DNA of 64,000 nucleotides from Escherichia coli (GTDB taxonomy: Bacteria; Pseudomonadota; Gammaproteobacteria; Enterobacterales; Enterobacteriaceae): NCBI RefSeq assembly GCF_036507355.1, contig NZ_AP027877.1, one strand, 5' to 3'. A program made the translations under genes and the position numbers. Position 1 is the stretch's first letter; every line of letters begins with the position of its first letter. Shown one piece after another: positions 12,998 to 64,000 of this stretch. The notes beneath the pieces were generated by a model. It saw only the letters and a list, made by a program, of their open reading frames with translations. It had not been told where the DNA came from and made no database searches.

Positions 12998-13056
12998 GCT
13001 ATGATTAGCCGCTATTTTTTTGTCCTGAATGATGTTTGACACTACCGAGGTGTACT

Positions 13057-14454
13057 ATTTTTACCCGAGTCGCTAATTTTTGCCGCAAGGTGCTAAGCCG
13101 CGAGGAAAGCGAGGCTGAACAGGCAGTCGCCCGTCCACAGGTGACGGTGATCCCGCGTGAGCAGCATGCTATTTCCCGCAAAGATATCAGTGAAAATGCC
13201 CTGAAGGTAATGTACAGGCTCAATAAAGCGGGATACGAAGCCTGGCTGGTTGGCGGCGGCGTGCGCGACCTGTTACTTGGCAAAAAGCCGAAAGACTTTG
13301 ACGTAACCACTAACGCCACGCCTGAGCAGGTGCGCAAACTGTTCCGTAACTGCCGCCTGGTGGGTCGCCGTTTCCGTCTGGCTCATGTGATGTTTGGCCC
13401 GGAGATTATCGAAGTTGCGACCTTCCGTGGACACCACGAAGGTAACGTCAGCGACCGCACGACCTCCCAACGCGGGCAAAACGGCATGTTGCTGCGCGAC
13501 AACATTTTCGGCTCCATCGAAGAAGACGCCCAGCGCCGCGATTTCACTATCAACAGCCTGTATTACAGCGTAGCGGATTTTACCGTCCGTGATTACGTTG
13601 GCGGTATGAAGGATCTGAAGGACGGCGTTATCCGTCTGATTGGTAACCCGGAAACGCGCTACCGTGAAGATCCGGTACGTATGCTGCGCGCAGTACGTTT
13701 TGCCGCCAAATTGGGTATGCGCATCAGCCCGGAAACCGCAGAACCGATCCCTCGCCTCGCTACCCTGCTGAACGATATCCCACCGGCACGCCTGTTTGAA
13801 GAATCGCTTAAACTGCTACAAGCGGGCTACGGTTACGAAACCTATAAGCTGCTGTGTGAATATCATCTGTTCCAGCCGCTGTTCCCGACCATTACCCGCT
13901 ACTTCACGGAAAATGGCGACAGCCCGATGGAGCGGATCATTGAACAGGTGCTGAAGAATACCGATACGCGTATCCATAACGATATGCGCGTGAACCCGGC
14001 GTTCCTGTTTGCCGCCATGTTCTGGTACCCACTGCTGGAGACGGCACAGAAGATCGCCCAGGAAAGCGGCCTGACCTATCACGACGCTTTCGCGCTGGCG
14101 ATGAACGACGTGCTGGACGAAGCCTGCCGTTCACTGGCAATCCCGAAACGTCTGACGACGTTAACCCGCGATATCTGGCAGTTGCAGTTGCGTATGTCCC
14201 GACGTCAGGGTAAACGTGCATGGAAACTGCTGGAGCATCCTAAGTTCCGTGCGGCTTATGACCTGTTGGCCTTGCGAGCTGAAGTTGAACGTAACGCTGA
14301 ACTGCAGCGTCTGGTGAAATGGTGGGGTGAGTTCCAGGTTTCCGCGCCACCAGACCAAAAAGGGATGCTCAACGAGCTGGATGAAGAACCGTCACCGCGT
14401 CGTCGTACTCGTCGTCCACGCAAACGCGCACCACGTCGTGAGGGTACCGCATGA
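13057..14454 (+). CDS. pcnB: Poly(A) polymerase I
   Basis: ORF track 13036..14454; known PAP I N-terminus ([12 protein letters not shown]...) begins at ATT 13057-13059; C-terminal basic tail; stop overlaps folK start (ATGA). Confidence 0.85.
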
Positions 14455-14930
14455 CAGTGGCGTATATTGCCATAGGCAGCAATCTGGCCTCTCCGCTGGA
14501 GCAGGTCAATGCTGCCCTGAAAGCATTAGGCGATATCCCTGAAAGCCACATTCTTGCCGTTTCTTCGTTTTACCGCACTCCACCGCTGGGGCCGCAAGAT
14601 CAACCCGATTACTTAAATGCAGCCGTAGCGCTGGAAACCTCTCTTGCCCCTGAAGAGCTACTCAATCACACTCAGCGTATTGAGTTACAACAAGGTCGCG
14701 TCCGTAAAGCGGAACGCTGGGGACCGCGCACGCTGGATCTCGACATCATGCTGTTTGGTAATGAAGTAATAAATACCGAACGCCTGACCGTTCCGCACTA
14801 CGATATGAAGAATCGTGGATTTATGCTGTGGCCGCTGTTTGAAATCGCGCCGGAGTTGGTGTTTCCTGATGGGGAGACGTTGCGTGAAATTTTACATGCA
14901 AGAAAATTTAGTAAATTAAACCAGTGGTAA
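14451..14930 (+). CDS. folK: 2-amino-4-hydroxy-6-hydroxymethyldihydropteridine pyrophosphokinase (HPPK)
   Basis: ORF track 159 aa, [19 protein letters not shown]... Confidence 0.93.
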
Positions 14931-15076
14931 TTTATTAATTTCGTGAATATAAATAATTTCCGAAAATCACATCATTCCAATTCCCAAACCAATCCTATTA
15001 GAGTAGACACTAGCTACATCAATTAATATTTAAATGCATCCTACCCATCTCCTTACACGAAACATCTCCATTTTGA

Positions 15077-15117
15077 AATTTAAATTTACTTAACCCTGAT
15101 TTAAGTAAATTTAAATT
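15077..15117. promoter_or_regulatory. Perfect 17-bp inverted repeat (aatttaaatttacttaa / ttaagtaaatttaaatt) with 7-bp spacer, upstream of yadN
   Basis: Read directly; lies in the 360-bp AT-rich spacer about 175 bp before the yadN start. Confidence 0.35.
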
Positions 15118-15290
15118 GCTCAAGTAACTTTAAAATGCACAATATGCGTCCTAATGAGGAATGATTGTAAATTTAGGTAACAAACAATCATTTCTCATTA
15201 ATGTTTGAATATATCTTTATATATTTGAGCCATGAATAGTCATACTTCAAATTAATGAACTACCTTATGGAATATTATTCAAGGATTATT

Positions 15291-15875
15291 ATGTCGAAAA
15301 AATTAGGTTTTGCGCTGTCCGGCTTGATGTTAGCAATGGTTGCTGGTAATGCTTCTGCAGCACTGGACGGTGGCCAATTAAATATCAGCGGTCTGGTAGT
15401 TGATAACACCTGTGAAACCCGTGTTGATGGTGGCAACAAAGATGGCCTGGTGCTGCTGCAAACTGCAACTGTTAGTGAAATCACTGCAGGCGTACTGAAT
15501 GACACCGTAGGTGCTAAAGCTAAACCTTTCAGCATCACCGTTGACTGCAGCAATGCGAACCCGAATCCTGGTAGCACTGCTAAAATGACCTTCGGTTCCG
15601 TGTTCTTTGGCAATAGCAAAGGGACTCTGAACAACGATATGTCTATTAATACCCCGGCTGATGGTGTAAATATTGCCCTGCACAATATTGATGGTTCTAC
15701 TATCAAACAGGTTCAAATTAACAACCCAGGTGATGCTTACATTAAAACCATGGATGCAACCTCAAAAACTGCAACTTTTGATTTTAAAGCATCCTATGTT
15801 CGTGCTGAAACAAGCACAGCACCAACTGCTGGTTATGTTAAAACCAACACTGCATATACCATTACTTACCAGTAA
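15291..15875 (+). CDS. yadN: Fimbrial major subunit (chaperone-usher fimbriae)
   Basis: ATG 15291 ([23 protein letters not shown] signal peptide), 194 aa; pilin-like C-terminus. Confidence 0.85.
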
Positions 15876-15980
15876 TCATTCGTTAGATTCATAAAACGAA
15901 TATATTTGGGAGATAACATTCAACTTACTTAGTAGTGGAATATTACTCCCTATTTTAATTAACTCTGTCAGGAATGGTTT

Positions 15981-16721
15981 ATGTTTTTAAACGCTAAACA
16001 TACTGCAGCATTATGTTTCGCCGCTTGTATGAGTTTGAGTACATCGGCAATAGCAGATATCGTAATTTCAGGAACTCGCGTAATTTATAAAAGCGATCAA
16101 AAAAGCGTGAACGTTCGTCTGGAAAATAAAGGGAATAATCCGTTACTTGTTCAGAGCTGGCTGGATACTGGCGACGACAGTGCTGAACCGGGGAGCATTA
16201 AAGTTCCATTTACCGCCACCCCACCGGTTTCACGTATTGATGCCAAACGTGGTCAAACCATTAAATTGATGTACACGGCTTCTTCGCCTCTGCCAAAAGA
16301 CAGAGAAAGTGTTTTCTGGTTTAACGTACTTGAAGTTCCACCCAAGCCTGACGCCGATAAAGTCGCTAATCAGAGCCTTCTGCAATTAGCTTTCCGTACG
16401 CGTATCAAACTGTTTTATCGCCCGGAAGGTTTAAACGGACTGCCAACTGATGCACCAGCTGCACTGAAATGGTCATGGACAACCTCTGCTGGCAAAACTG
16501 CATTGCGCGTCGCAAATCCGACGCCGTATCACGTGTCATTCAGTAGTGGTGATTTAGTCGCCAATGGCAAAACCTACCCACTGGACGTCAAAATGGTGGC
16601 CCCGCTGAGTGAAGAAACCTTCTACATAAAAGGCATGAGTGGTAAAGCAAGTTCGGCAAAAGTGCATTTCTTCGCCATAAATGACTTTGGTGGCGCAATT
16701 GAAGGCAATGCCAGCCTGTAA
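15981..16721 (+). CDS. yadV: Periplasmic fimbrial chaperone (PapD-like)
   Basis: ORF track 246 aa; signal peptide; also named ecpD in K-12. Confidence 0.85.
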   Translation: MFLNAKHTAALCFAACMSLSTSAIADIVISGTRVIYKSDQKSVNVRLENKGNNPLLVQSWLDTGDDSAEPGSIKVPFTATPPVSRIDAKRGQTIKLMYTASSPLPKDRESVFWFNVLEVPPKPDADKVANQSLLQLAFRTRIKLFYRPEGLNGLPTDAPAALKWSWTTSAGKTALRVANPTPYHVSFSSGDLVANGKTYPLDVKMVAPLSEETFYIKGMSGKASSAKVHFFAINDFGGAIEGNASL

Positions 16722-16755
16722 CTAAATCAGGAATAAACGCAGCAGGAAGCACAAC

Positions 16756-19356
16756 GTGTCCAGAAAAATCATAAAAACGCATAATAACAAACTTACTTAT
16801 ATAGCCTCGTTTTGCGCATTGCTGTTAAGCCCCTGTGCCATAAGCGCTGAACACGTTGAATATGATAATACCTTTTTGATGGGGCAAGATGCTTCTAACA
16901 TCGACCTTAGTCGGTATACCGAAGGTAACCCTACCTTGCCCGGCGTGTATGACGTCAGTGTTTATGTCAACGATCAACCAGTTATCAGCCAAAGCATCTC
17001 CTTTATTACCCTCGAAGGTAAGAAAAATGCGCAGGCTTGTATCACGCTGAAGAATTTATTGCAATTTCACATTAACCAGCCTGATATAAAAGACGAGAAT
17101 GCCATCCTTCTTCAACGAGAAGAAGAGCTAGGGGACTGTCTCGATCTGGGGAATGTTATTCCTCAAGCTTCCGTTCATTACGACGTTAATGATCAACGAC
17201 TGGACATCAACGTTCCTCAAGCCTGGGTAATGAAGAATTACCAAAACTATGTTGATCCATCATTGTGGGAAAACGGTATTAACGCTGCAATGCTGTCCTA
17301 CAATGTCAACGCATATCACAGCGAAATACCAGACAGAAAAAACGACAGTGTTTATGCGGCATTTAACGGCGGTATAAATCTGGGGGCATGGCGGCTTCGT
17401 GCCACCGGTAACTACAACTGGATGACCGATGCAGGCACTAATTACGATTTTCAAAATCGCTATTTGCAGCGCGACCTGGCCTCTTTGCGTTCACAGTTAG
17501 TTGTGGGTGAGTCATACACAACTGGGGAAACCTTTGATTCTGTCAGTATTCGCGGTGTTCGCTTATACAGTGACAGCCGAATGCTACCACCTACATTAGC
17601 CAGTTTTGCGCCAATTATTCATGGTGTTGCTAACACCAACGCAAAAGTCACCATTACCCAGGGTGGTTATAAAATCTATGAAACTACCGTGCCGCCGGGC
17701 GCATTTGTCATTGATGATGTAAGCCCATCAGGCTACGGCAGCGATCTCATTGTCACAATCGAAGAGTCTGATGGCACAAAGCGAACTTTTTCCCAGCCAT
17801 TTTCTTCGGTCGTTCAGATGTTACGTCCAGGTGTGGGAAGATGGGACATCAGTGCAGGTAAGATCTTAAAAGACGATATTCAAAATGAGCCTAATTTGTT
17901 CCAGGCCAGTTATTACTATGGTCTGAACAACCTCCTGACGGGGTATACCGGTATTCAGATTACCGATAATAACTATACTGCCGGGCTGCTTGGTCTTGGT
18001 CTGAATACCACATACGGTGCGTTTTCAGTCGATGTAACCCATTCAGATGTGCAAATTCCGGATGATAAAACCTACCGGGGGCAAAGCTATCGCCTTTCCT
18101 GGAATAAGTTATTTGAAGATACCAGAACTTCGCTCAATATCGCGGCTTACCGTTATTCTACCCAGAATTATCTGGGGCTTAACGATGCCCTGACACTGAT
18201 CGACGAAGTAAAACATCCTGAACAGGACCTGGAACCTAAAAATATGCGTAACTATTCTCGCATGAAAAATCAGGTTACGGTCAGTATTAACCAACCGCTG
18301 AAATATGGAAAGGAAGACTACGGCTCATTCTATCTTTCCGGAAGTTGGTCTGATTATTGGGCTTCCGGTCAAAATAATACCAATTACTCCCTCGGCTACA
18401 GTAACAGCGCATCGTGGGGCAGCTACAGCATTAGTGCTCAGCGCTCCCGGGATCAAGACGGCGATAATGAAGATAGCATCTATCTAAGCTTTAGTATTCC
18501 TATCGAAAAATTACTGGGTACAGAACATCGTAATTCTGGTTTTCAGACCATTGATACTCAGTTAAGTAGTGATTTCGATGGCAGCAACCAACTCAGTATC
18601 AGTAGTAGTGGTTTTAGCGACGATAACCGTATCAGTTATAGCGTCAATACGGGCTATTCGATGATGAAGTCCAGCGATGATTTGAGCTATATCGGTGGGT
18701 ATGCGAGCTATGAATCTCCCTGGGGAACACTTGCCAGTTCAGTTTCCGCCAGCAGCGATAATAGCCGTCAGATCTCATTTAATACCGATGGTGGATTTGT
18801 TTTGCATAGCGGCGGCCTGACCTTCAGTAATGATAGCTTCAGCGATTCCGATACTTTGGCGGTTATACAAGCGCCAGGAGCTAAAGGGGCACGCATTAAC
18901 TATGGTAATAGCACGGTAGACCGTTGGGGATATGGCGTTACTAATGCACTTTCGCCATACCATGAAAACCGAATTGCACTCGATATTAACGGTCTCGAAA
19001 ATGACGTTGAGCTGAAAAGTACCAGTGCTGTTGCCGTACCACGCCAGGGGTCTGTTGTCTTTGCTGGTTTTGAAACTGTCCAGGGGCAATCGGCTATCAT
19101 GAACATCAAGCGTACAGATGGTAAAAACATTCCGTTTGCCGCTGATATTTATGACGAAAACGGCAATATCATTGGTAACGTTGGGCAAGGTGGTCAGGCC
19201 TTTGTTCGAGGTATAGAACAACAAGGCAATATACGAATCAACTGGCTTGACGAGGGTAAACCTGTTACTTGCCTTGCTCATTACCAACAGAGCGCAGCAC
19301 CAGAAAAAATAGCGCAATCTATTATTTTGAATGGAATTAGTTGTCAGATTCAGTAA
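16756..19356 (+). CDS. htrE: Outer-membrane fimbrial usher
   Basis: ORF track 866 aa, GTG start at 16756; usher-sized beta-barrel protein. Confidence 0.85.
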   Translation: MSRKIIKTHNNKLTYIASFCALLLSPCAISAEHVEYDNTFLMGQDASNIDLSRYTEGNPTLPGVYDVSVYVNDQPVISQSISFITLEGKKNAQACITLKNLLQFHINQPDIKDENAILLQREEELGDCLDLGNVIPQASVHYDVNDQRLDINVPQAWVMKNYQNYVDPSLWENGINAAMLSYNVNAYHSEIPDRKNDSVYAAFNGGINLGAWRLRATGNYNWMTDAGTNYDFQNRYLQRDLASLRSQLVVGESYTTGETFDSVSIRGVRLYSDSRMLPPTLASFAPIIHGVANTNAKVTITQGGYKIYETTVPPGAFVIDDVSPSGYGSDLIVTIEESDGTKRTFSQPFSSVVQMLRPGVGRWDISAGKILKDDIQNEPNLFQASYYYGLNNLLTGYTGIQITDNNYTAGLLGLGLNTTYGAFSVDVTHSDVQIPDDKTYRGQSYRLSWNKLFEDTRTSLNIAAYRYSTQNYLGLNDALTLIDEVKHPEQDLEPKNMRNYSRMKNQVTVSINQPLKYGKEDYGSFYLSGSWSDYWASGQNNTNYSLGYSNSASWGSYSISAQRSRDQDGDNEDSIYLSFSIPIEKLLGTEHRNSGFQTIDTQLSSDFDGSNQLSISSSGFSDDNRISYSVNTGYSMMKSSDDLSYIGGYASYESPWGTLASSVSASSDNSRQISFNTDGGFVLHSGGLTFSNDSFSDSDTLAVIQAPGAKGARINYGNSTVDRWGYGVTNALSPYHENRIALDINGLENDVELKSTSAVAVPRQGSVVFAGFETVQGQSAIMNIKRTDGKNIPFAADIYDENGNIIGNVGQGGQAFVRGIEQQGNIRINWLDEGKPVTCLAHYQQSAAPEKIAQSIILNGISCQIQ

Positions 19357-19375
19357 CAACAGGGAATTTCACATA

Positions 19376-19945
19376 ATGAGAATAACACTGCATAAATTGG
19401 CAATACTGACGGGATTATTTTTATCATCCTCTGTACTTGCAACAGACATTAATGTTGATTTTACAGCAACCGTAAAAGCATCAACTTGTAATATTACGCT
19501 AACAGGTAACAATGTCACCAGTGACGGGAATGACACCTACACACTAACATTCCCTGGTACTATTGGCCTGGATAAAATTGCAAATAAAACTACTCAGGCA
19601 CAGGCGAATTTTAATCTGGTTGCCAGCGGTTGTACCACAGGCGTCAGTAAAATCACCACCAAACTCAGTGGAAGTGCTTCGGGAAGTTCACCCGCATTAA
19701 TCATTCCGTCAACTTCCGACACTACATCAACCACCGATTATATTGGTATGGGTATAAAAAGAATTGATACTGATGATTCGACATTTTTAACCCCAAACAG
19801 TGCACAAAGCATTATATGGAGTGGAACAGAAATTAGCAGCACTGAGGGTCTTAAACTGACCGTTGCATTGCGCGAAACCAGTGCTGGCAGGGGCGTTCCT
19901 GGCGATTTCCGCGCCCAGGCAACATTCAATTTCATTTATGAATAA
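19376..19945 (+). CDS. yadM: Fimbrial minor subunit
   Basis: ATG 19376 (MRITLHKLAILTGLFLSSSVLA), 189 aa inside ORF track 19331..19945. Confidence 0.8.
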   Translation: MRITLHKLAILTGLFLSSSVLATDINVDFTATVKASTCNITLTGNNVTSDGNDTYTLTFPGTIGLDKIANKTTQAQANFNLVASGCTTGVSKITTKLSGSASGSSPALIIPSTSDTTSTTDYIGMGIKRIDTDDSTFLTPNSAQSIIWSGTEISSTEGLKLTVALRETSAGRGVPGDFRAQATFNFIYE

Positions 19946-19959
19946 CAGGGATGATAATA

Positions 19960-20565
19960 ATGAAATCTAAAACATTACGTTATGGACTGCCTGCTGGTAT
20001 TATTTTGACGGCATCCCTATTCACCAGCCAATTGTTTGCAGCGACAGATAACGTTAAGCTGAATGTTAAAGCAACCGTAGAGATGGGAACCTGTACCGCC
20101 AGCCTGGTGGATGACAATGATCAACCTTTAACTGTTGTTGCATTTGGTGACGCTTATATTCCTGAAATTGATGCCAAAACAAAAATTAAAACTTTTAAGT
20201 TACAGTTTAAGGACTGTGCAGGCGTTCCTAATAAAAAGGCCTTGGTCAAATTAACTAAACGCGCAACGTGTGAAGGAACGGCCAACGATGGGCCTGGATT
20301 TGCAAACGGCTCCGCTGCGGCTGATAAAGCAAGCGCTGTGGCGGTTGAAGTATGGAGTACCACGGCACCCGCTACAGGTGGCGCGACTCAATTTAGCTGT
20401 GTAACACCGGTCGCTCAGGAAGTGAATATCTCCGCTGCAACAGGAAATACATCGGTATATCATCCTATGAGTGCACGCCTGGTGGTAGAGAAAAATAAAA
20501 GCAGTACCGACATCACTGCCGGTCCGTTTTCGGCACCTGCGACATTTTCTATCACCTATAACTAA
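19960..20565 (+). CDS. yadL: Fimbrial minor subunit
   Basis: ATG 19960 (MKSKTLRYGLPAGIILTASLFTSQLFA), 201 aa. Confidence 0.8.
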   Translation: MKSKTLRYGLPAGIILTASLFTSQLFAATDNVKLNVKATVEMGTCTASLVDDNDQPLTVVAFGDAYIPEIDAKTKIKTFKLQFKDCAGVPNKKALVKLTKRATCEGTANDGPGFANGSAAADKASAVAVEVWSTTAPATGGATQFSCVTPVAQEVNISAATGNTSVYHPMSARLVVEKNKSSTDITAGPFSAPATFSITYN

Positions 20566-20591
20566 CAGGCCATTAAAGTCAGGGACCGATT

Positions 20592-21188
20592 ATGCTTTCC
20601 TCTCAACTAAAAATTAAGATAAAAACAAGTCTGTTCCTGGCATTATTGTTTGCCACATCCAGCCCTGTATATGCAGGACTGGATGTGGATATGGTTGCCA
20701 ATATCAAGAACAGTACATGTAAAAGTGGCCTCAGCAACCTTGGTAATATCGACCTTGGTGTGGTGGGTGTGGAGTATTTTTCTGGTAATGTCACGGCTGA
20801 AGACAATTATCCCGGCGGGAGAGAGTTCACTGTCACTGTGACTGACTGCGCCATCCAGGGTTCTGGAAATGTGTTAAATCAGTTACATATTAACTTTAAA
20901 CCACTCAATGGCGTGATGGCGACTGGCTCTCAGCAAATTTTTGCAAATGAAAATGTCGCCGGGGCTCAAAACGTAGGTGTAGTCATATTTTCCATTCAGG
21001 ATCCGGCTAATACATTTAATGTTCTTAATCCAGCGGGCAGTTCTCGTTCAATTTATCCGGTGATGACGGCTGATTTAAACAATTCATCCTGGAAATTCTA
21101 CACACGAATGCAAAAAATTAACCCAGCGCTAAATATCGCATCGGGTCAGGTCAAAAGCACTGTGCTGATTGATATTTATTATGAATAG
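20592..21188 (+). CDS. yadK: Fimbrial minor subunit
   Basis: ORF track 198 aa with signal peptide. Confidence 0.8.
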   Translation: MLSSQLKIKIKTSLFLALLFATSSPVYAGLDVDMVANIKNSTCKSGLSNLGNIDLGVVGVEYFSGNVTAEDNYPGGREFTVTVTDCAIQGSGNVLNQLHINFKPLNGVMATGSQQIFANENVAGAQNVGVVIFSIQDPANTFNVLNPAGSSRSIYPVMTADLNNSSWKFYTRMQKINPALNIASGQVKSTVLIDIYYE

Positions 21189-21228
21189 TCTCATGCATAA
21201 GAAATATAACTAAACACACATATTGGGA

Positions 21229-22488
21229 ATGATACAAATGAGAGCCATTCTTAACCACTTAATTTTATTATTATTTATATCCAGTTTTTCGCTCTATGCT
21301 GCCAACAATACAATATTTGTCGTTGGAGCAGGAAACGCCGATAGTTTTGCTGGTCCTTCTGGCAATGGAAGAGCAACATTCCGCTATTCGACGGCCAGTA
21401 ATAATTTAGTATTTTATAAACCAACCGGACCTGGCGTTGTTAAAACAAATGTAAAACTCTACTGGTCACAACTCGACACAGCAAGCGGGGGGAATACAGG
21501 GCTTGTATATTGCAACAGGGCTGGCTCTGCCAGTGACGAACCCATTCTCATTAAGCCTAAAATGGTAGAGTCTGGTTTAACTTATGGCGGTAATAAGCTA
21601 TTTAAAACCTCCGTGACCGGCCTTTACTACACGCTAACTATTTCTAATATTTGGACAGCATGGGACACAACAACTAATATCTCTTCTATCGTTGTCGGTA
21701 ATCGCCCGGATGGTGAGTATGATGGTTTCCGTTTTCAGGTTAGTAATTCTTATGTTAATCAAGGCTGTAATAATGCCGGCACAACCAGTAAATATGCGGC
21801 CATTGGTGGCATAATGCAAAGCCTTACCATCGAATTTTATACCGATGGCACATTTGATCCGGTGCAAAATCAGAAAGTTACCTTATTACGTACTGCTGAC
21901 CACCTCTACGAATTTAAAACGGAAGGAGCAGGTGGCGGTATCAACGAACATAGCAAATCTATTTATGTCGATTTTGATTTGGTAAATATCACGATTACAT
22001 TACCGACCTGTTTTACTTCTGTTCTTACTGGAACATCTGTTAGTGGTTCTACGGTAAAAATGGGGGAATACACCTCTGAGGAAATTAAAAATGGAGCGAC
22101 ACCTGTTCCTTTCGATATTTCCCTGCAAAACTGTATACGGGTAAGAAATATTGAAACAAAGCTTGTTTCCGCAAAAGTTGGCACTGAGAACAGAAAACTA
22201 CTCGGTAATACTCTCACCGGTAATGATGCAGCAAAGGGAGTAGGTGTATTAGTTGAGGGCTTGCTATCCGTTAAAAGTCTGCAAATGGTTCTGGAGCCGA
22301 ATAACGCCTCTTCCGTGTATAAAGATTATGAGTATGAAGACGATGCAACTGAGGGGATATATCCCGATAAAGGAAACGGTACAACACAAGCACTCCATTT
22401 CCAGGCTACATTACAGCAGGATGGAACTATACCAATAGAATCAGGTGAGTTTAAAGCCACCAGTACTTTCCAGGTGACCTACCCTTAA
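21229..22488 (+). CDS. yadC: Fimbrial tip adhesin-like protein
   Basis: ORF track 21223..22488 (421 aa, TTG); ATG candidates at 21229 and 21238, exact start uncertain; signal peptide LILLLFISSFSLYA. Confidence 0.75.
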   Translation: MIQMRAILNHLILLLFISSFSLYAANNTIFVVGAGNADSFAGPSGNGRATFRYSTASNNLVFYKPTGPGVVKTNVKLYWSQLDTASGGNTGLVYCNRAGSASDEPILIKPKMVESGLTYGGNKLFKTSVTGLYYTLTISNIWTAWDTTTNISSIVVGNRPDGEYDGFRFQVSNSYVNQGCNNAGTTSKYAAIGGIMQSLTIEFYTDGTFDPVQNQKVTLLRTADHLYEFKTEGAGGGINEHSKSIYVDFDLVNITITLPTCFTSVLTGTSVSGSTVKMGEYTSEEIKNGATPVPFDISLQNCIRVRNIETKLVSAKVGTENRKLLGNTLTGNDAAKGVGVLVEGLLSVKSLQMVLEPNNASSVYKDYEYEDDATEGIYPDKGNGTTQALHFQATLQQDGTIPIESGEFKATSTFQVTYP

Positions 22489-22495
22489 TAAGCCC

Positions 22496-22524
22496 ACCGC
22501 ACCGCCATCATCTGGCGGTGCGGT
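22496..22524 (+). terminator. GC-rich stem-loop after yadC (11-bp perfect stem accgcaccgcc/ggcggtgcggt)
   Basis: Read directly; weak U tract (aattgat), possible operon terminator. Confidence 0.4.
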
Positions 22525-22600
22525 AATTGATAAATCATTGCCCCCACCAATGTGACTGATAAAATGCCAGGTAACACGACATCATTTATCAGGACACGTT

Positions 22601-23395
22601 ATGAAACCGACCACCATTGCTTCATTGCAAAAATGCAAACAGGAAAAAAAACGTTTCGCGACCATCACCGCTTACGACTATAGCTTCGCCAAACTCTTTG
22701 CCGATGAAGGACTTAATGTCATGCTGGTAGGCGACTCGCTGGGCATGACGGTTCAGGGGCACGACTCCACCCTGCCAGTTACCGTTGCTGATATCGCCTA
22801 CCACACTGCCGCCGTACGTCGTGGCGCGCCAAACTGCCTGTTGTTGGCTGACCTGCCGTTTATGGCGTATGCCACGCCGGAACAAGCTTTTGAAAACGCC
22901 GCAACGGTTATGCGTGCCGGTGCTAACATGGTCAAAATTGAAGGCGGTGAGTGGCTGGTCGAAACCGTAAAAATGCTGACCGAACGTGCCGTTCCTGTAT
23001 GTGGTCACTTAGGTTTAACCCCACAGTCAGTGAATATTTTCGGTGGCTACAAAGTTCAGGGGCGCGGCGATGAAGCGAGCGATCGACTGCTTAGCGATGC
23101 ATTAGCCTTAGAAGCCGCTGGTGCACAGTTGCTGGTGCTGGAATGCGTTCCGGTTGAACTGGCAAAACGTATTACCGAAGCACTGGCGATCCCGGTTATT
23201 GGCATTGGCGCAGGCAACGTCACTGACGGGCAGATCCTCGTGATGCACGATGCGTTCGGCATTACCGGCGGCCATATCCCTAAATTTGCCAAAAATTTCC
23301 TCGCTGAAACGGGCGACATCCGCGCGGCTGTGCGGCAGTATATGGCTGAAGTGGAGTCCGGCGTTTATCCGGGCGAAGAACACAGTTTCCATTAA
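22601..23395 (+). CDS. panB: 3-methyl-2-oxobutanoate hydroxymethyltransferase
   Basis: ORF track 264 aa, [33 protein letters not shown]... Confidence 0.95.
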
Positions 23396-23406
23396 GGAGT
23401 GACGTT

Positions 23407-33898: not shown

Positions 33899-33997
33899 TG
33901 CCGGATGCGGCGTGAACGCCTTATCCAGCCTACAAAATTGTGCAAAATCAATGGATTGCACAGGTAGCGTAGGCCTGATAAGCGTAGCGCATCAGGC
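33899..33997. repeat. BIME: two inverted REP units between gcd and cueO
   Basis: tgccggatgcggcgtgaacgccttatccagcctac and gtaggcctgataagcgtagcgcatcaggc are canonical REP sequences. Confidence 0.75.
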
Positions 33998-34062
33998 AGA
34001 TTTGCGTTTGTCATCAGTTTAATGCCCGGAGAGATCCGGGCATATTCCCGAATACGGTCTTT

Positions 34063-35613
34063 TTATACCGTAAACCCTAACATCATCCCCGTATCTTCAT
34101 GCTCCAGCAGATGGCAGTGCGCCATATAAGCATGTTCTTTCGGTGCGTCGTGATTAAACTTCACCAGCACTTCACTGACATTGCCTTCTACCTTAACGGT
34201 ATCTTTCCAGCCCGCGCGATGAGCCGCTGGCGGTTTGCCATTTTCTGACAAGATACGGAACTGCGTGCCGTGAATATGGAACGGATGCAGCATCATGTCG
34301 CCCACGCCAGAGATAACCCAACGTTCATACTGCCCTTTCGCCGCCGCAAACATCGGCTTATTCATATCAAACGCCTGACCGTTGATTTTATTGGCATGGT
34401 GGAAATCGAACTTCCCGCCGTGGTTCATATGATTCATATTGCCGTGCCCCATATGGCCCATCATCTGGCTGTGATCCATCCCGGCCATCGCCTGATCGCC
34501 ATATTTCTCCATTAGCATCTGCATCCCCATCATATCGAGCATCGGGTCCATAGAAAGTTGCAGCTTGCGTACCGTCAGCCCTTCCAGCGAAGGTAACGCA
34601 GGCAGGCTACTTAATGTGTCTGGCAAAGCACCGGAGGCACTAATAGCAATCGGCTGAATCCGCATTACCGGATGCGGCTTGTCAAACGGTGCAATCGCCA
34701 TCCCCATCTGGCTGACCGGCAGCGTCACCAGGTCAAAGGGTTTGTTGTCGTTAACCTCCACCAGCACTTCAAAACGCTCGCCCATCAGCACCGGCAGCTC
34801 GTTCACCTTCACCGGTTCAGGTAGCAGACCACCGTCGCTGGCAATCACATAAAGCGGGCGATTGTCGCTGGTGGCGAAATTGAGCGAGCGGGCATTACAG
34901 CCATTGAGCAAACGCAGGCGCAGCCAACCACGCGGGGCAGCGTGTTGCGGGTAGATTGCACCGTTGGTCAGCAACGTATCGCCAAACCAGCCCACGGCGG
35001 CGGTCATCACATCCAGTTGATAATCAATCTGCCCGTCGGCGCTAAATTTCTTATCCTGAACGATCACCGGAACATCATCGATACCCCACTGTTTTGGCAG
35101 CATTAATTTCAGGATCTCGTCATCTTCAATCACCACCAGACCAGCCAGCCCCATCGCCACCTGTCGCCCGGTCTTGCCATGTTGATGTGGATGGAACCAG
35201 CAGGTAGCGGCAGGTTGATCAACGTTCAACGTCACCGAGCGCTTGCCACCTGGCGGAATAATTCCCTGTGGGCCGCCGTCGACTTCACCCGGTACTTCCA
35301 GCCCGTGCCAGTGCAACGTCGTCTCTTCCGTCAGTTGGTTATAGATATCAACCGTTACCGCTTTGCCGCGCTGTAATTTCACCGCCGGCCCCAGCAGATT
35401 GCCGTTATAGCCCCAGGTAGTTGCAGTTTTCTCGCCAAAGGTAGACTGACCTGCGCCAATAGTTAACTGAATGCGATTACGGGCATCGGTCGTGAGCAAA
35501 TCAGGGATCGGTAACGTTGGGCGTTCCGCCGCAAAGACTGCACGGCTCCACAGTGGCAAGGCTGAAGCCACACCCAGTGCGACGGAATATTTCAAGAAAT
35601 CACGACGTTGCAT
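34063..35613 (-). CDS. cueO: Multicopper oxidase CueO (Tat-exported)
   Basis: ORF track 34063..35652; start at ATG 35611-35613 ([28 protein letters not shown] twin-arginine signal); Met-rich segment; copper-site histidines. Confidence 0.9.
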
Positions 35614-41080: not shown

Positions 41081-42498
41081 GACGGTTCTCCTCGCTCTCA
41101 TTGTCATAGTGCGGCAGGCGATTCTCTTCACGCTCCTGTGAGACAGCAGTTTGTAGGGTAAATGCCCAGTACCGCAACGGGCAGAATAGCAGGATTTTGA
41201 CGATGTGTTAATCTGTTTACAAAAAAGCAACATAAAAAAGTGGCTGAATCGTTAAGGATGGTCTAGAGATTGTTTCCCTCCGTAAAAACTTCGTTAATTC
41301 GCATAGTGATAATCACCTTTCTCAACGAATCCCAAGATTAGTCAAAATTTAAACTACCGCCTCTTTATACTCAGATTTACAGCACCTGCGGGTGGCAGTT
41401 CGCCGACCATTGCGATTTCCTTGAGATCCGAATTATGAAAATGACTTTGCCGTTTAAACCCCATGTGCTGGCGCTAATTTGCAGTGCCGGGCTTTGTGCC
41501 GCCTCTACCGGGCTATATATAAAAAGCCGCACAGTGGAAGCGCCTGTGGAACCGCAATCGACACAACTGGCTGTGTCTGACGCTGCCGCGGTTACGCTTC
41601 CTGCAACGGTTTCCGCACCTCCCGTAACACCCGCCGTCGTCAAATCCGCATTCAGCACTGCACAAATAGATCAATGGGTCGCGCCCGTCGCGCTGTATCC
41701 CGACGCCCTACTTTCGCAGGTGCTGATGGCATCAACCTATCCGACAAACGTTGCTCAAGCAGTGCAATGGTCGCACGATAATCCACTTAAACAAGGCGAT
41801 GCTGCTATTCAGGCGGTATCTGACCAGCCGTGGGACGCCAGCGTTAAATCACTGGTGGCCTTTCCACAATTGATGGCATTGATGGGCGAAAACCCGCAAT
41901 GAGTGCAAAACCTGGGCGATGCTTTTCTGGCGCAGCCGCAGGACGTGATGGACTCGGTACAGCGATTGCGGCAACTGGCGCAACAAACCGGCTCGCTGAA
42001 GTCATCAACCGAACAGAAAGTTATTACCACAACGAAGAAAGCTGTACCGGTAAAACAGACAGTCACGGCACCCGTCATACCATCCAATACCGTTTCAACT
42101 GCCAACCCTGTCATTACAGAGCCTGCAACAACCGTCATTTCCATTGAGCCCGCCAATCCTGATGTAGTCTATATTCCCAACTACAACCCAACCGTGGTTT
42201 ACGGGAACTGGGCCAATACTGCGTATCCGCCGGTTTATCTGCCACCACCAGCCGGAGAACCGTTTGTTGACAGCTTTGTGCGCGGATTCGGCTATAGCAT
42301 GGGCGTTGCTACCACGTACGCACTATTCAGCAGCATCGACTGGGATGACGACGATCATGACCATTATCATCATGACGATGATAATTATCATCACCACGAT
42401 GGCGGTCATCGTGACGGTAATGGCTGGCAACACAATGAATCGCCACGGGTTTAACAGACACCTCAGAGTCATTTAAGATGGCTTAAAGAGAGGTGCCC

Positions 42499-42777
42499 AT
42501 GAGCGGTAAGCGTTATCCCGAAGAGTTTAAAATTGAAGCAGTCAAACAGGTTGTTGATCGCGGTTATTCTGTTGCCAGCGTTGCAACACGTCTCGATATC
42601 ACCACCCACAGCCTTTACGCCTGGATAAAGAAGTACGGTCCGGATTCTTCCGCTAATAAAGAACAGTCAGATGCTCAGGCCGAGATCCGCCGTCTCCAGA
42701 AAGAGCTGAAGCGGGTTACCGACGAACGGGACATATTAAAAAAAGCCGCGGCGTACTTCGCAAAGCTGTCCGACTGA
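42499..42777 (+). CDS. IS3-family transposase OrfA (helix-turn-helix plus leucine zipper)
   Basis: MSGKRYPEEFKIEAVKQVVDRGYSVASVATRLDITTHSLYAWIKKYG...; slippery A7G at 42738-42745 near the 3' end. Confidence 0.85.
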   Translation: MSGKRYPEEFKIEAVKQVVDRGYSVASVATRLDITTHSLYAWIKKYGPDSSANKEQSDAQAEIRRLQKELKRVTDERDILKKAAAYFAKLSD

Positions 42778-42833
42778 GGTACGCCTTTATCCGTGACAAC
42801 ACCTGTTGCTGGCCTGTTCGCCTGCTCTGTCGG

Positions 42834-43646
42834 GTGCTGGATGTTCATCCCAGTGGTTTTTACGCCTGGCTTCAGCAGCCGCATTCACAACGCCATCAGG
42901 CAGACCTGAGGCTGACAGGGCAGATTAAACAGTTCTGGCTGGAATCGGGATGCGTCTATGGTTATCGCAAAATCCATCTGGATCTGCGGGACAGCGGGCA
43001 ACAGTGCGGAGTGAACAGAGTCTGGCGACTGATGAAACGTGTCGGGATAAAGGCTCAGGTCGGATACCGGAGCCCGCGGGCACGTAAAGGCGAGGCCAGT
43101 ATCGTGTCGCCCAACAGGCTCCAGCGACAGTTCAATCCGGATGCTCCGGATAAGCGTTGGGTAACGGACATAACCTACATCAGGACCCACGAAGGCTGGC
43201 TGTATCTTGCCGTGGTTGTTGATCTGTTCTCACGCAAAATTATCGGCTGGTCCATGCAATCCCGGATGACAAAGGACATTGTCCTGAACGCACTGCTGAT
43301 GGCTGTATGGCGCCGTAATCCCCAAAAACAGGTGCTGGTTCATTCGGATCAGGGCAGTCAGTACACAAGCCATGAGTGGCAGTCGTTCCTGAAATCACAC
43401 GGCCTGGATGGCAGCATGAGCCGTCGCGGTAACTGCCATGATAATGCGGTTGCAGAAAGCTTTTTCCAGTTGTTGAAACGCGAACGGATAAAGAAAAAGA
43501 TCTACGGAACGCGGGAAGAAGCCCGCAGCGATATTTTTGATTACATCGAAATGTTTTATAACAGTAAGCGTCGGCATGGTTCCAGCGATCAGATGTCACC
43601 GACAGAATATGAAAACCAGTATTATCAACGGCTCGGAAGTGTCTAG
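42834..43646 (+). CDS. IS3-family transposase OrfB (DDE integrase core), expected as OrfAB fusion by -1 frameshift
   Basis: ORF track 270 aa in -1 frame relative to orfA; motifs WVTDITYI, HSDQGSQYTS, CHDNAVAESFF. Confidence 0.85.
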   Translation: MLDVHPSGFYAWLQQPHSQRHQADLRLTGQIKQFWLESGCVYGYRKIHLDLRDSGQQCGVNRVWRLMKRVGIKAQVGYRSPRARKGEASIVSPNRLQRQFNPDAPDKRWVTDITYIRTHEGWLYLAVVVDLFSRKIIGWSMQSRMTKDIVLNALLMAVWRRNPQKQVLVHSDQGSQYTSHEWQSFLKSHGLDGSMSRRGNCHDNAVAESFFQLLKRERIKKKIYGTREEARSDIFDYIEMFYNSKRRHGSSDQMSPTEYENQYYQRLGSV

Positions 43647-44070
43647 ATTATCCGTGGCGATTCACAACGGCGACAACATCAATATCGACGTCAACAATTT
43701 CAACCGTATCACCGGTGAGCATCTTACTGATAAGAATATGGCATGGCGGCACAATCAAAACTACCGTAATGGTGTGCCCTATCATGATCAGGATATGGCA
43801 AAGCGGTTTCATCAAACCGATGTCAACGGCGGAATGAGTGCCACGCAGCTACCTGCTCCAACACGCGACAGCCAGCGTCAGGCGGCAGCAAGTCAGTTTC
43901 AGCAACGAACACACGCCGCCCCCGTCATTACACGAGATACCCAACGTCAGGCAGCGGCACAGCGGTTTAATGAAGCTGAACACTATGGGAGCTATGACGA
44001 CTTCCGCGACTTCAGCCGTCGCCAACCACTGACCCAGCAACAAAAGGACGCCGCTCGTCAGCGTTATCAG

Positions 44071-44420
44071 TCAGCTTCTCCTGAGCAGCGCCAGGCAGTT
44101 CACGAGAAAATGCAGACTAACCCGCAGAACCAGCAGCGAAGAGAGGCAGCGCGTGAGCGCATTCAGCCCGCCTCGCCTGAGCAGCGCCAGGCAGTCCGCG
44201 AGAAAATACAGATTAACCCACAGATCCAGCAGCGAAGAGACGCAGCGCGTGAGCGTATTCAGTCAGCCTCGCCTGAGCAGCGCCAGGTGTTTAAGGAAAA
44301 AGTACAGCAGCGCCCACTGAACCAACAGCAACGTGATAACGCCCGCCAGCGTGTTCAATCAGCATCACCTGAACAACGTCAGGTTTTTCGGGAGAAAGTT
44401 CAGGAGAGCCGCCCACAACG
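44071..44420 (+). repeat. Tandem 96-bp coding repeats (about 3.6 copies) in the yacH 3' part
   Basis: Repeated 32-aa unit SASPEQRQAV(H/R)EK(M/I)Q.NPQ.QQRR.AARERIQ with copies starting at 44071, 44167, 44263, 44359. Confidence 0.7.
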
Positions 44421-44531
44421 TCTAAACGACAGTAACCATACTGCCAGGCTGAATAACGAGCAACGGTCAGCAGTACGCGAACGTCTCTCTGAGCGCGGAG
44501 CAAGGCGACTGGAAAGGTAAATTACAGGCGT

Positions 44532-44562
44532 AAAAAAAGCGGCGTGGTTAGCCGCTTTTTTA
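44532..44562. terminator. Bidirectional rho-independent terminator between convergent yacH and lpd
   Basis: A7 - stem agcggc/gccgct - T7. Confidence 0.7.
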
Positions 44563-61963: not shown

Positions 61964-62161
61964 ATGTCAGAAACTATTACGGTGAATTGCCCAACCTGCG
62001 GGAAAACGGTGGTGTGGGGTGAAATCAGCCCGTTTCGGCCATTTTGCTCCAAACGTTGTCAGCTGATTGACCTCGGAGAATGGGCTGCTGAAGAAAAACG
62101 AATCCCCAGCAGTGGCGATCTTTCCGAAAGCGATGACTGGAGCGAAGAACCAAAGCAGTGA
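61964..62161 (+). CDS. yacG: DNA gyrase inhibitor YacG (zinc finger)
   Basis: ORF track 65 aa; CPTCGK...CSKRC zinc ribbon. Confidence 0.9.
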
Positions 62162-62170
62162 CATTTGTCT

Positions 62171-62263
62171 GATGCCGCACGTAGGCCTGATAAGACGCGC
62201 CAGCGTCGCATCAGGCATCGTGTGCGAATGTCGGATGCGGCGAAAACGCCTTATCTGACCTAC
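62171..62263. repeat. BIME: REP units between convergent yacG and mutT
   Basis: gcctgataagacgcgccagcgtcgcatcaggc and gtcggatgcggcgaaaacgccttatctgacctac are canonical REP sequences. Confidence 0.75.
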
Positions 62264-62649: not shown

Positions 62650-62708
62650 TGTCTTAAACCTATAAAAAAGGCGCAGAATCCTGCGCCTTTTACTTCAACA
62701 GTTAGCTT

Positions 62709-64000
62709 TTATTGCAGGCGGCCATGGCACTGCTTGTATTTTTTACCAGAACCGCACGGGCAAGGATCGTTACGTCCTACTTTGCGCTCACCGGTTTGCG
62801 CCGCCAGTGCAGCTGCGGCTGCAGAGTCGTCATCCTGATGGCTAAGCTGCTGCATTTGCGCTAAACGCTCGGCTTCCATACGACGCTGTTGTTCCAGCTC
62901 CTCAACCTCTTCAGGCATACGTACCTGAACTTTGCTCAGCGTACTGATAACTTCATATTTCAACGACTCCAGCATCGCTGCAAACATGGAGAACGATTCA
63001 CGTTTGTATTCCTGCTTCGGATCTTTCTGTGCATAGCCACGCAGGTGGATACCCTGACGCAGATAGTCCATCGCTGCCAGGTGCTCTTTCCACAGGGAGT
63101 CAAGCGTTTGCAGCATGACGCCTTTCTCGAAGTGACGCATCATCTCAGCACCAACCACTTCTTCTTTACGCTGATACACTTCGATGGACTGCGCCAGAAT
63201 GCGCTCACGCAGCGTCTCTTCATGCAGTTCTGGTTCTTTATCCAGCCACTCGGCAATTGGCAAATCGAGGTCGAAATCGTTCTTCAGACGTTCCTGCAGC
63301 CCCGGAATATCCCACATTTCTTCCAGCGACTGTGGTGGAATGTAGGCATCAATGGTCGCTTTGAACACATCTTCACGAATGCTGTTAATGGTTTCGCTCA
63401 CATCGCTGACATCCAGCAATTCGTTACGCTGGGAGTAAATGGCACGACGCTGATCGTTAGCCACGTCATCATATTCCAGCAGTTGCTTACGAATGTCGAA
63501 GTTACGACTTTCAACTTTACGCTGGGCGTTGGCAATCGCTTTAGTCACCCACGGGTGTTCAATGGCTTCGCCTGGCTTCATACCCAGTTTACGCATCATT
63601 CCGGATACTCGGTCGGAAGCAAAAATACGCATCAGCGCATCTTCCATCGACAGGTAGAAACGGGAAGAACCAGCATCCCCCTGACGACCAGAACGACCGC
63701 GCAACTGGTTATCGATACGACGGGATTCGTGACGCTCGGTACCGATGATATGCAGGCCACCTGCTGCCAGTACCGCATCGTGACGTACCTGCCAGTCGGC
63801 TTTAATTTTTTCAATTTGCTCTGCGGTCGGATTTTCCAGCGCGGCAACTTCTGCCTGCCAGCTACCACCGAGCACAATATCTGTACCACGACCCGCCATG
63901 TTGGTCGCGATAGTCACCGCAGCCGGATAACCTGCCTGAGCAACAATCGCCGCTTCGTTGGCGTGGAATTTGGCGTTCAGGACATTGTGCTTAATACCGG
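62709..64000 (-). CDS. secA: Preprotein translocase ATPase SecA, C-terminal part; gene runs off the window end
   Basis: ORF track 62709..63917 ends with zinc-binding [14 protein letters not shown]; frame stays open upstream to 64000 and reads ...[40 protein letters not shown]. Confidence 0.93.

Follow-up and report, generated by a model that had tools for sequence, protein, structure and literature searches.

REP/BIME elements in two convergent intergenic spacers of an Escherichia coli chromosome segment: known repeats that vary in unit number and receive IS621 and IS1397

Short palindromic repeats lie between gcd and cueO and between yacG and mutT in the stretch of Escherichia coli DNA analysed here (64,000 nucleotides, hereafter the window), and they raise the question of whether they truly belong to the enterobacterial REP family and whether, as hotspots for insertion sequences and rearrangement, they mark the most likely variable sites of a stretch that is otherwise conserved. 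Both statements had been made in a preliminary description of the window, which was drawn up from its letters and placed the repeats at 33899-33997 and 62171-62263. The window is a segment of the Escherichia chromosome that runs in the orientation opposite to K-12 coordinates ~110-174 kb. The gene names and the convergent orientation given in that description are correct according to the annotation of homologous regions: gcd (+) and cueO (-) converge on a spacer of 201 bp (site 1), and yacG (+) and mutT (-) on a spacer of 98 bp (site 2). The features of both sites are collected in Table 1 together with the other variable sites of the window. REP and BIME elements, their polymorphism between strains and their targeting by IS621 and IS1397 have been in the literature since the 1990s-2000s, and the REP/BIME elements of both sites are already-known biology. 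The population comparisons reported below were made on a set of 5,426 complete E. coli genomes.

Table 1. Coordinates, in window positions, of the genes and repeat features at the two spacers and of the other variable sites
Feature	Position	Strand	Remarks
gcd, quinoprotein glucose dehydrogenase	31471..33861	+	ORF end at 33861; homologues annotated gcd, 2391 nt; start inferred from the 2391-nt length in homologous records
Whole BIME-1 mosaic element, ~151 bp	33869..34019		left flank motif, y REP, L linker, z1 REP, right flank motif
y-type REP of site 1, GCCGGATGCGGCGTGAACGCCTTATCCAGCCTAC	33900..33933	+	ends in CTAC; degenerate CCAGCC for CCGGCC
L linker, 35 nt	33934..33968	+	IHF consensus AATCAATGGATTG at 33946-33958
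z1-type REP of site 1, GTAGGCCTGATAAGCGTAGCGCATCAGGC	33969..33997	- (inverted)	29 nt
Hairpin with perfect 9-bp stem, ATGCCCGGA/TCCGGGCAT	34022..34043		20 nt from the cueO stop; outside the BIME
cueO, multicopper oxidase	34063..35613	-	ORF stop at 34063; homologues annotated cueO, 1551 nt
yacG, DNA gyrase inhibitor	61964..62161	+	converges on site 2
z2-type REP of site 2, GTAGGCCTGATAAGACGCGCCAGCGTCGCATCAGGC	62181..62216	-	IS621 target at the foot; IS1397 inserted in the central loop in C25
Short linker, ATCGTGTGCGAAT, 13 nt	62217..62229		between the z2 and y REPs
y-type REP of site 2, GTCGGATGCGGCGAAAACGCCTTATCTGACCTAC	62230..62263	+	CTAC at 62260-62263 holds the mutT stop TAG (- strand)
Rfam RF02564 naRNA4, Y-linker-Z2 unit	62184..62260	- (mutT mRNA strand)	77.8 bits vs gathering score 59.5; model positions 1-77 of 77
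mutT, 129 aa	62260..62649	-	converges on site 2; ends inside the y REP
yad fimbrial operon (chaperone-usher)	~14900-22500		60-80% identity to the K-12, O157 and B2 alleles; flanking genes 97-99%
panC-rpnC spacer	24264-24805		highly variable; 542 bp here vs ~54 bp in K-12
IS3-family element in yacH, 1,230 bp	42436-43665		in the window only; none of the five comparison strains has it here
yacH 3' length difference	44315-44536		
aceF-lpd spacer	46045-46074		117-bp boxC-like insertion in K-12 and L73
aroP-pdhR	52047-52068		empty in the window; 3.9-kb island in ST95-32 and A24 carrying a tssD fusion (type VI secretion) plus immunity genes
aroP-ampE	53666-53675		empty in the window; 2.5-kb insert in L73 with a sugar symporter and a glycoside hydrolase 43
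hofC 3' end			deletion in A24

Both strands of the spacers were read, and the reported REP units were confirmed as four units, two per site, with matches to the REP consensus that exceed chance. The core pattern GATGCGRCG-N3-14-CGYCTTATC gave three matches in the window against 0.00 expected, and CTTATCMGGCCTAC, with at most two mismatches, gave six where 0.53 were expected, of which four are genuine and correspond to the units of sites 1 and 2; the consensus counts of the window were equalled by none of 100 shuffles, and pattern scans found no further REP unit in the 64 kb. REPs are defined as imperfect palindromes of 30-40 nt with stem-loop potential; the units here are 29-36 nt long and each is predicted to form an imperfect hairpin, with z-scores of -3.4 to -3.8 for three of them and of -0.96 for the y unit of site 1. 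A REP by definition bears GTAG at the palindrome foot, read as CTAC on the opposite strand (PMC3333891), and this tetranucleotide is present in all four units (CTAC at 33930-33933 and 62260-62263, GTAG at 33969-33972 and 62181-62184). The sequences are, moreover, those of a dispersed, extragenic repeat: queries holding site 1 found a median of at least 33-35 matching places per E. coli genome and the query for site 2 a median of 11, and REP-only matches were obtained on unrelated records as well. The RefSeq feature table of K-12 lists no repeat_region features at the two spacers. No evidence contradicting the REP/BIME identification arose in the analysis, and we regard it as very likely that both sites are copies of enterobacterial REP/BIME elements, that is, short non-autonomous palindromic repeats at the 3' ends of convergent genes.

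Four stop codons are followed directly by G+C-rich hairpins, which would also fit another reading, in which the palindromes are plain intrinsic terminators of the convergent genes and no repeat family at all. However, each genome has dozens of copies of these sequences, the genomes that lack the element of site 1 retain only a separate hairpin (34022-34043), and a scan for G+C-rich hairpins followed by a T-run returned no intrinsic terminator at either spacer on either strand. Intrinsic terminators as the sole explanation are refuted by the copy number and the missing T tracts, and we give this reading practically no credence. With the repeat identity adopted, the limits proposed for the two elements need some adjustment. 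At site 1 the interval 33899-33997 frames the REP pair almost exactly, but the repeated element is larger and extends over 33869-34019; at site 2 the interval 62171-62263 does contain the REP pair, but positions 62171-62180 are flank and positions 62260-62263 overlap the coding sequence and stop codon of mutT.

The organisation of site 1 is that of BIME-1, an element defined by a y and a z1 unit, by its occurrence as a single copy and by L, a long conserved linker in which an IHF site is often present (PMC3333891). At site 1 a y and a z1 unit in inverse orientation form a single pair and enclose a linker with a predicted IHF site, and the z1 unit is shorter than z2 (29 vs 36 nt), having a short central part. 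Positions 33869-34019 are alignable to other BIME-1 loci (fepA-entD, downstream of yiiF, and rnr-rlmB), the matches of site-1 queries at other loci begin at window position 33869, and the alignment shows the L linker to be conserved in three other BIME-1 copies. The linker contains a perfect match to the IHF consensus WATCAANNNNTTR. This consensus alone is not above chance, with four matches in the window vs 2.5 expected; the match at 33946-33958 counts because it is located in the conserved L linker. Comparison with BIME-1 as described (RIP/RIB; Gilson/Bachellier classes according to PMC3333891) reveals a shared y unit, inverted z1 unit, L linker, flank motifs and single copy, and nothing essential that differs, the y REP having one stem-weakening substitution (CCAGCC). 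Folding of the spacer against shuffles gave z-scores of -6.0 for the + strand and -5.4 for the - strand. The Rfam model RF02564 (naRNA4) remained below threshold at site 1, with 34.8 and 18 bits and a partial match that spans the y hairpin. As a separate observation, positions 33934-33976 of the L linker region match Rfam RF02751 (ES036/CssrF sRNA) over the full 43-nt model with 34.6 bits vs a cut-off of 37.6, and RF02751 appears to model the BIME-1 repeat linker.

Variation at this site had been anticipated, and comparison across strains confirms that the spacer differs in length, in the presence of BIME-1 and in IS content, with at least five states: 201 bp with BIME-1 (the window and K-12), 46 bp without BIME-1 (many strains, e.g. 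ST95 and ST131), 77 bp (CEA601S), 256 bp with the flank and the y REP duplicated (A24), and a spacer with an IS621 insertion (strain 3036). A query composed of the gcd end, the y unit and L detected BIME-1 in 2,815 of the 5,426 genomes (52%); the element is missing in the remaining ~48%, most of which have the 46-bp spacer, an allele without positions 33862-34019 as one block. Diverged relatives were sought in a species-representative collection with the invariant hairpin beside cueO as the query, and two loci were returned. One belongs to a lineage 92% identical to the window, in which a decayed BIME-1 is found between gcd and cueO (GCAGG for GTAGG, and several stem changes); the other, from a second divergent lineage that is 92-96% identical to the window, is the 46-bp allele. 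Because both states are found in divergent lineages, the comparison indicates that the polymorphism is old or was spread by recombination, and insertion and precise deletion are both possible origins. The elements are dispensable for their neighbouring genes, BIME-1 being missing from the gcd-cueO spacer in ~48% of the genomes. The hairpin at 34022-34043, in turn, is unchanged in all the spacer alleles seen, including the 46-bp allele, and is likely the better candidate for a shared 3'-end structure of gcd and cueO, with a putative role as terminator; the terminator scan found no T-run beside it on either strand.

Site 2 is, by its sequence organisation, probably of BIME-2 type, comprising a y and a z2 unit, a 13-nt linker and a tandem number that varies between strains, as is characteristic of the BIME-2 class, in which the copies are arranged in tandem and their number is variable (PMC3333891). 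In these same respects it resembles BIME-2/naRNA4 (RF02564; REP325 of K-12), although the window has a single unit vs six in REP325. The copy-number difference foreseen in the preliminary description was checked across strains and is real, since K-12-like strains have two units and LH50-c has three where the window has one; in a sample of 59 evenly spaced chromosomal rows, 31 were one-unit, 24 two-unit, one three-unit and three interrupted by an IS. The linker between units in the multi-unit alleles, the two-unit allele of K-12 included, is 35 nt long, L-like and provided with the IHF consensus, which suggests 'atypical BIME' as the class of these alleles, a possible alternative to BIME-2 for site 2. 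The intact yacG-mutT spacer is missing in ~327 E. coli genomes, of which IS621 explains ~180, and one sampled case is IS1397; IS621 does not account for ~146 of them, and IS1397 would be expected in part of these.

The spacer of site 2 is strongly structured on both strands, and it contains a full-length match to RF02564 above the gathering score. The naRNA4 RNA is the Y-l-Z2 unit of REP325 and works together with HU (PMC4550694). A reading of site 2 as a functional sRNA gene, naRNA4-like, HU-binding and nucleoid-condensing, and more than a repeat in a 3' untranslated region, is favoured by the full-length match, by the known role of naRNA4 and by the position of the match on the mutT mRNA strand, so that it would be transcribed. 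However, RF02564 in effect models any y/z2 unit, activity is known for REP325 units only (PMC4550694), site 2 has a single unit, and a promoter-like site was not found in its spacer. We therefore consider an sRNA gene at site 2 unlikely and treat the match as a REP/BIME unit in what would be the 3' untranslated region of mutT. Two further Rfam matches in the window are above threshold, namely the sRNA tp2 (50796-50909, + strand, 103 bits) and the sRNA STnc40 (62664-62733, - strand, 84 bits), the latter in the secA-mutT spacer.

The REP units are IS hotspots, with IS621 found in 206 genomes at site 1 and ~180 at site 2, and IS1397 in strain C25. IS621 is a bridge-RNA-guided element of the IS110 family whose natural target is the 11-nt sequence ATCAGGCCTAC with a CT core (PMC11208160, Durrant 2024). 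This sequence occurs in exact form only twice in the window, at 33969-33979 and 62181-62191, both on the - strand, and its position corresponds to the foot of the z1 REP at site 1 and of the z2 REP at site 2. IS621 itself is absent from the window. Analysis of junction sequences places IS621 at exactly GTAG^GCC in strains 3036 (site 1), 2015C-4944 and JNEC-KY179. The count for site 1 (206/5,426) was obtained with a junction-specific query containing a long unique flank, and those for site 2 are 181/5,426 by the left junction and 178/5,426 by the right junction; strain S3 has IS621 at both sites. Our first counts for site 1, of 1,259 and 1,071 genomes, were above an upper bound of 217 and were discarded; they were inflated because the flank motif starts at 33869, and the 80% coverage rule therefore let through IS621 insertions in BIME-1 copies elsewhere. 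Both z REPs are like the natural IS621 targets (Choi 2003 as cited in PMC11208160) in presenting the exact 11-mer and in having IS621 inserted after the CT core. The names of the genes at the two loci have no occurrence in the supplements of PMC11208160. In strain C25 (one genome among those examined), the z2 REP of site 2 is interrupted in its central loop by IS1397, a REP-specific element (PMC1525189) of the IS3 family, which is flanked by GCCA on each side; the position is like that of known IS1397 sites. The z-type REPs at both sites are natural landing sites of IS621, and the z2 loop is a landing site of IS1397.

As to what the repeats may do, the roles described in the literature for REP/BIME elements (PMC3333891, PMC12306157 and PMC4550694) would apply to the two spacers as follows. 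The flanking genes would carry the repeats, transcribed from both strands, in their 3' untranslated regions, and the REP hairpins there would shield the 3' ends of the mRNAs and reduce read-through from one convergent gene into the other. The L linker would bind IHF, and BIME-2 y/z2 units would interact with gyrase and HU. A REP-associated transposase (TnpA_REP/RAYT), encoded elsewhere, would drive gain, loss and tandem amplification of the units. What is observed at both spacers is copy-number change by whole units together with site-specific IS capture. The repeats could also be pictured as neutral passengers, selfish sequences tolerated between convergent genes without any regulation of gcd, cueO, yacG or mutT. 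The absence of BIME-1 from ~48% of complete E. coli genomes, its splitting by IS621 in 206 more, its decay in the 92%-identical lineage and the drift of the site-2 unit number between one and three all argue in this direction, as does the fact that the invariant feature of site 1 is the hairpin next to cueO and not the BIME. Against it, REP hairpins affect mRNA stability, termination and translation in published work (PMC3333891, PMC12306157), and the y REP of site 2 provides the stop codon of mutT and so is not wholly without effect on that gene. We consider fully neutral passengers a plausible but less likely account, and we retain the reading of REP/BIME elements that may act at the 3' ends of their neighbours.

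The overlap with mutT deserves closer description. Within the y REP of site 2, the CTA at 62260-62262 reads on the - strand as TAG, the stop codon of mutT. MutT of the window and of K-12 ends in ...KRL with the TAG placed within the GTAG of the REP; in O157 and B2-type strains the REP has ATAC for CTAC, and MutT is extended by three residues (132 vs 129 aa) to a new stop TAA inside the GATAAG of the REP. The number of downstream units (1-3) and the insertions of IS621 and IS1397 also change the mutT 3' end. According to the part of Liang 2015 that is quoted in PMC12306157, REP hairpins situated less than 16 nt from a stop codon cause ribosome stalling and lower translation. By analogy, the y REP with the mutT stop might conceivably tune the antimutator MutT to different levels from strain to strain, an idea that we offer as a long shot; if it were true, REP variants could shift MutT dosage and hence the A:T to C:G mutation rate between lineages.

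Beyond annotation the importance of the two sites is small. The spacers should be annotated as BIME-1 and as a BIME-2-type unit, not as genes, given that spurious ORFs (e.g. 33799-34014) and the naRNA4 Rfam label arise from the repeats. IS621, of current interest as a programmable bridge-RNA recombinase, can be predicted to land in both spacers, and length variation is to be expected at both in strain typing and assembly.

There remains the question of whether the rest of the stretch is conserved, as the preliminary description had it. Alignment of window positions 13.5-64 kb to K-12, O157:H7, ST95-32, A24 and L73 contradicts this part of the description, because at least seven other structural differences appear in comparison with only five strains (Table 1). 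The description thus stands in seeing standard REP/BIME elements at convergent gene ends that are IS hotspots and variable, and fails in calling the stretch otherwise conserved: the REP sites are truly variable, but they are two among ~10 variable sites. Over a 12-kb test segment (13000-25000), none of the complete E. coli genomes compared exceeds 98.0% identity to the window, and for 1.1-kb pieces the top identity is 99.5-99.6% (L73, O157:H7). The lineage that the window comes from is thus not represented among those genomes; it may be a Shigella, with which the IS in yacH would be in keeping. The yad allele of L73 is 98% similar to that of the window. The aceF-lpd spacer contains a 147-bp segment with a boxC-like palindrome in K-12 and L73 vs ~30 bp in the window, O157, ST95-32 and A24. 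The sole IS present in the window is the IS3-family element in yacH, outside any REP; it has two overlapping transposase frames and perfect 13-bp inverted ends (TGAATCGCCACGG/CCGTGGCGATTCA) with CAA on both sides, and full copies of it were found in 181 of the 5,426 genomes. In the panC-rpnC spacer, the core at 24378-24416 is boxC-like, its 39 nt being identical to the extra aceF-lpd segment of K-12 and L73; the same spacer contains a 71-aa ORF resembling the C-terminus of RpnC, and L73 has an IS1 there.
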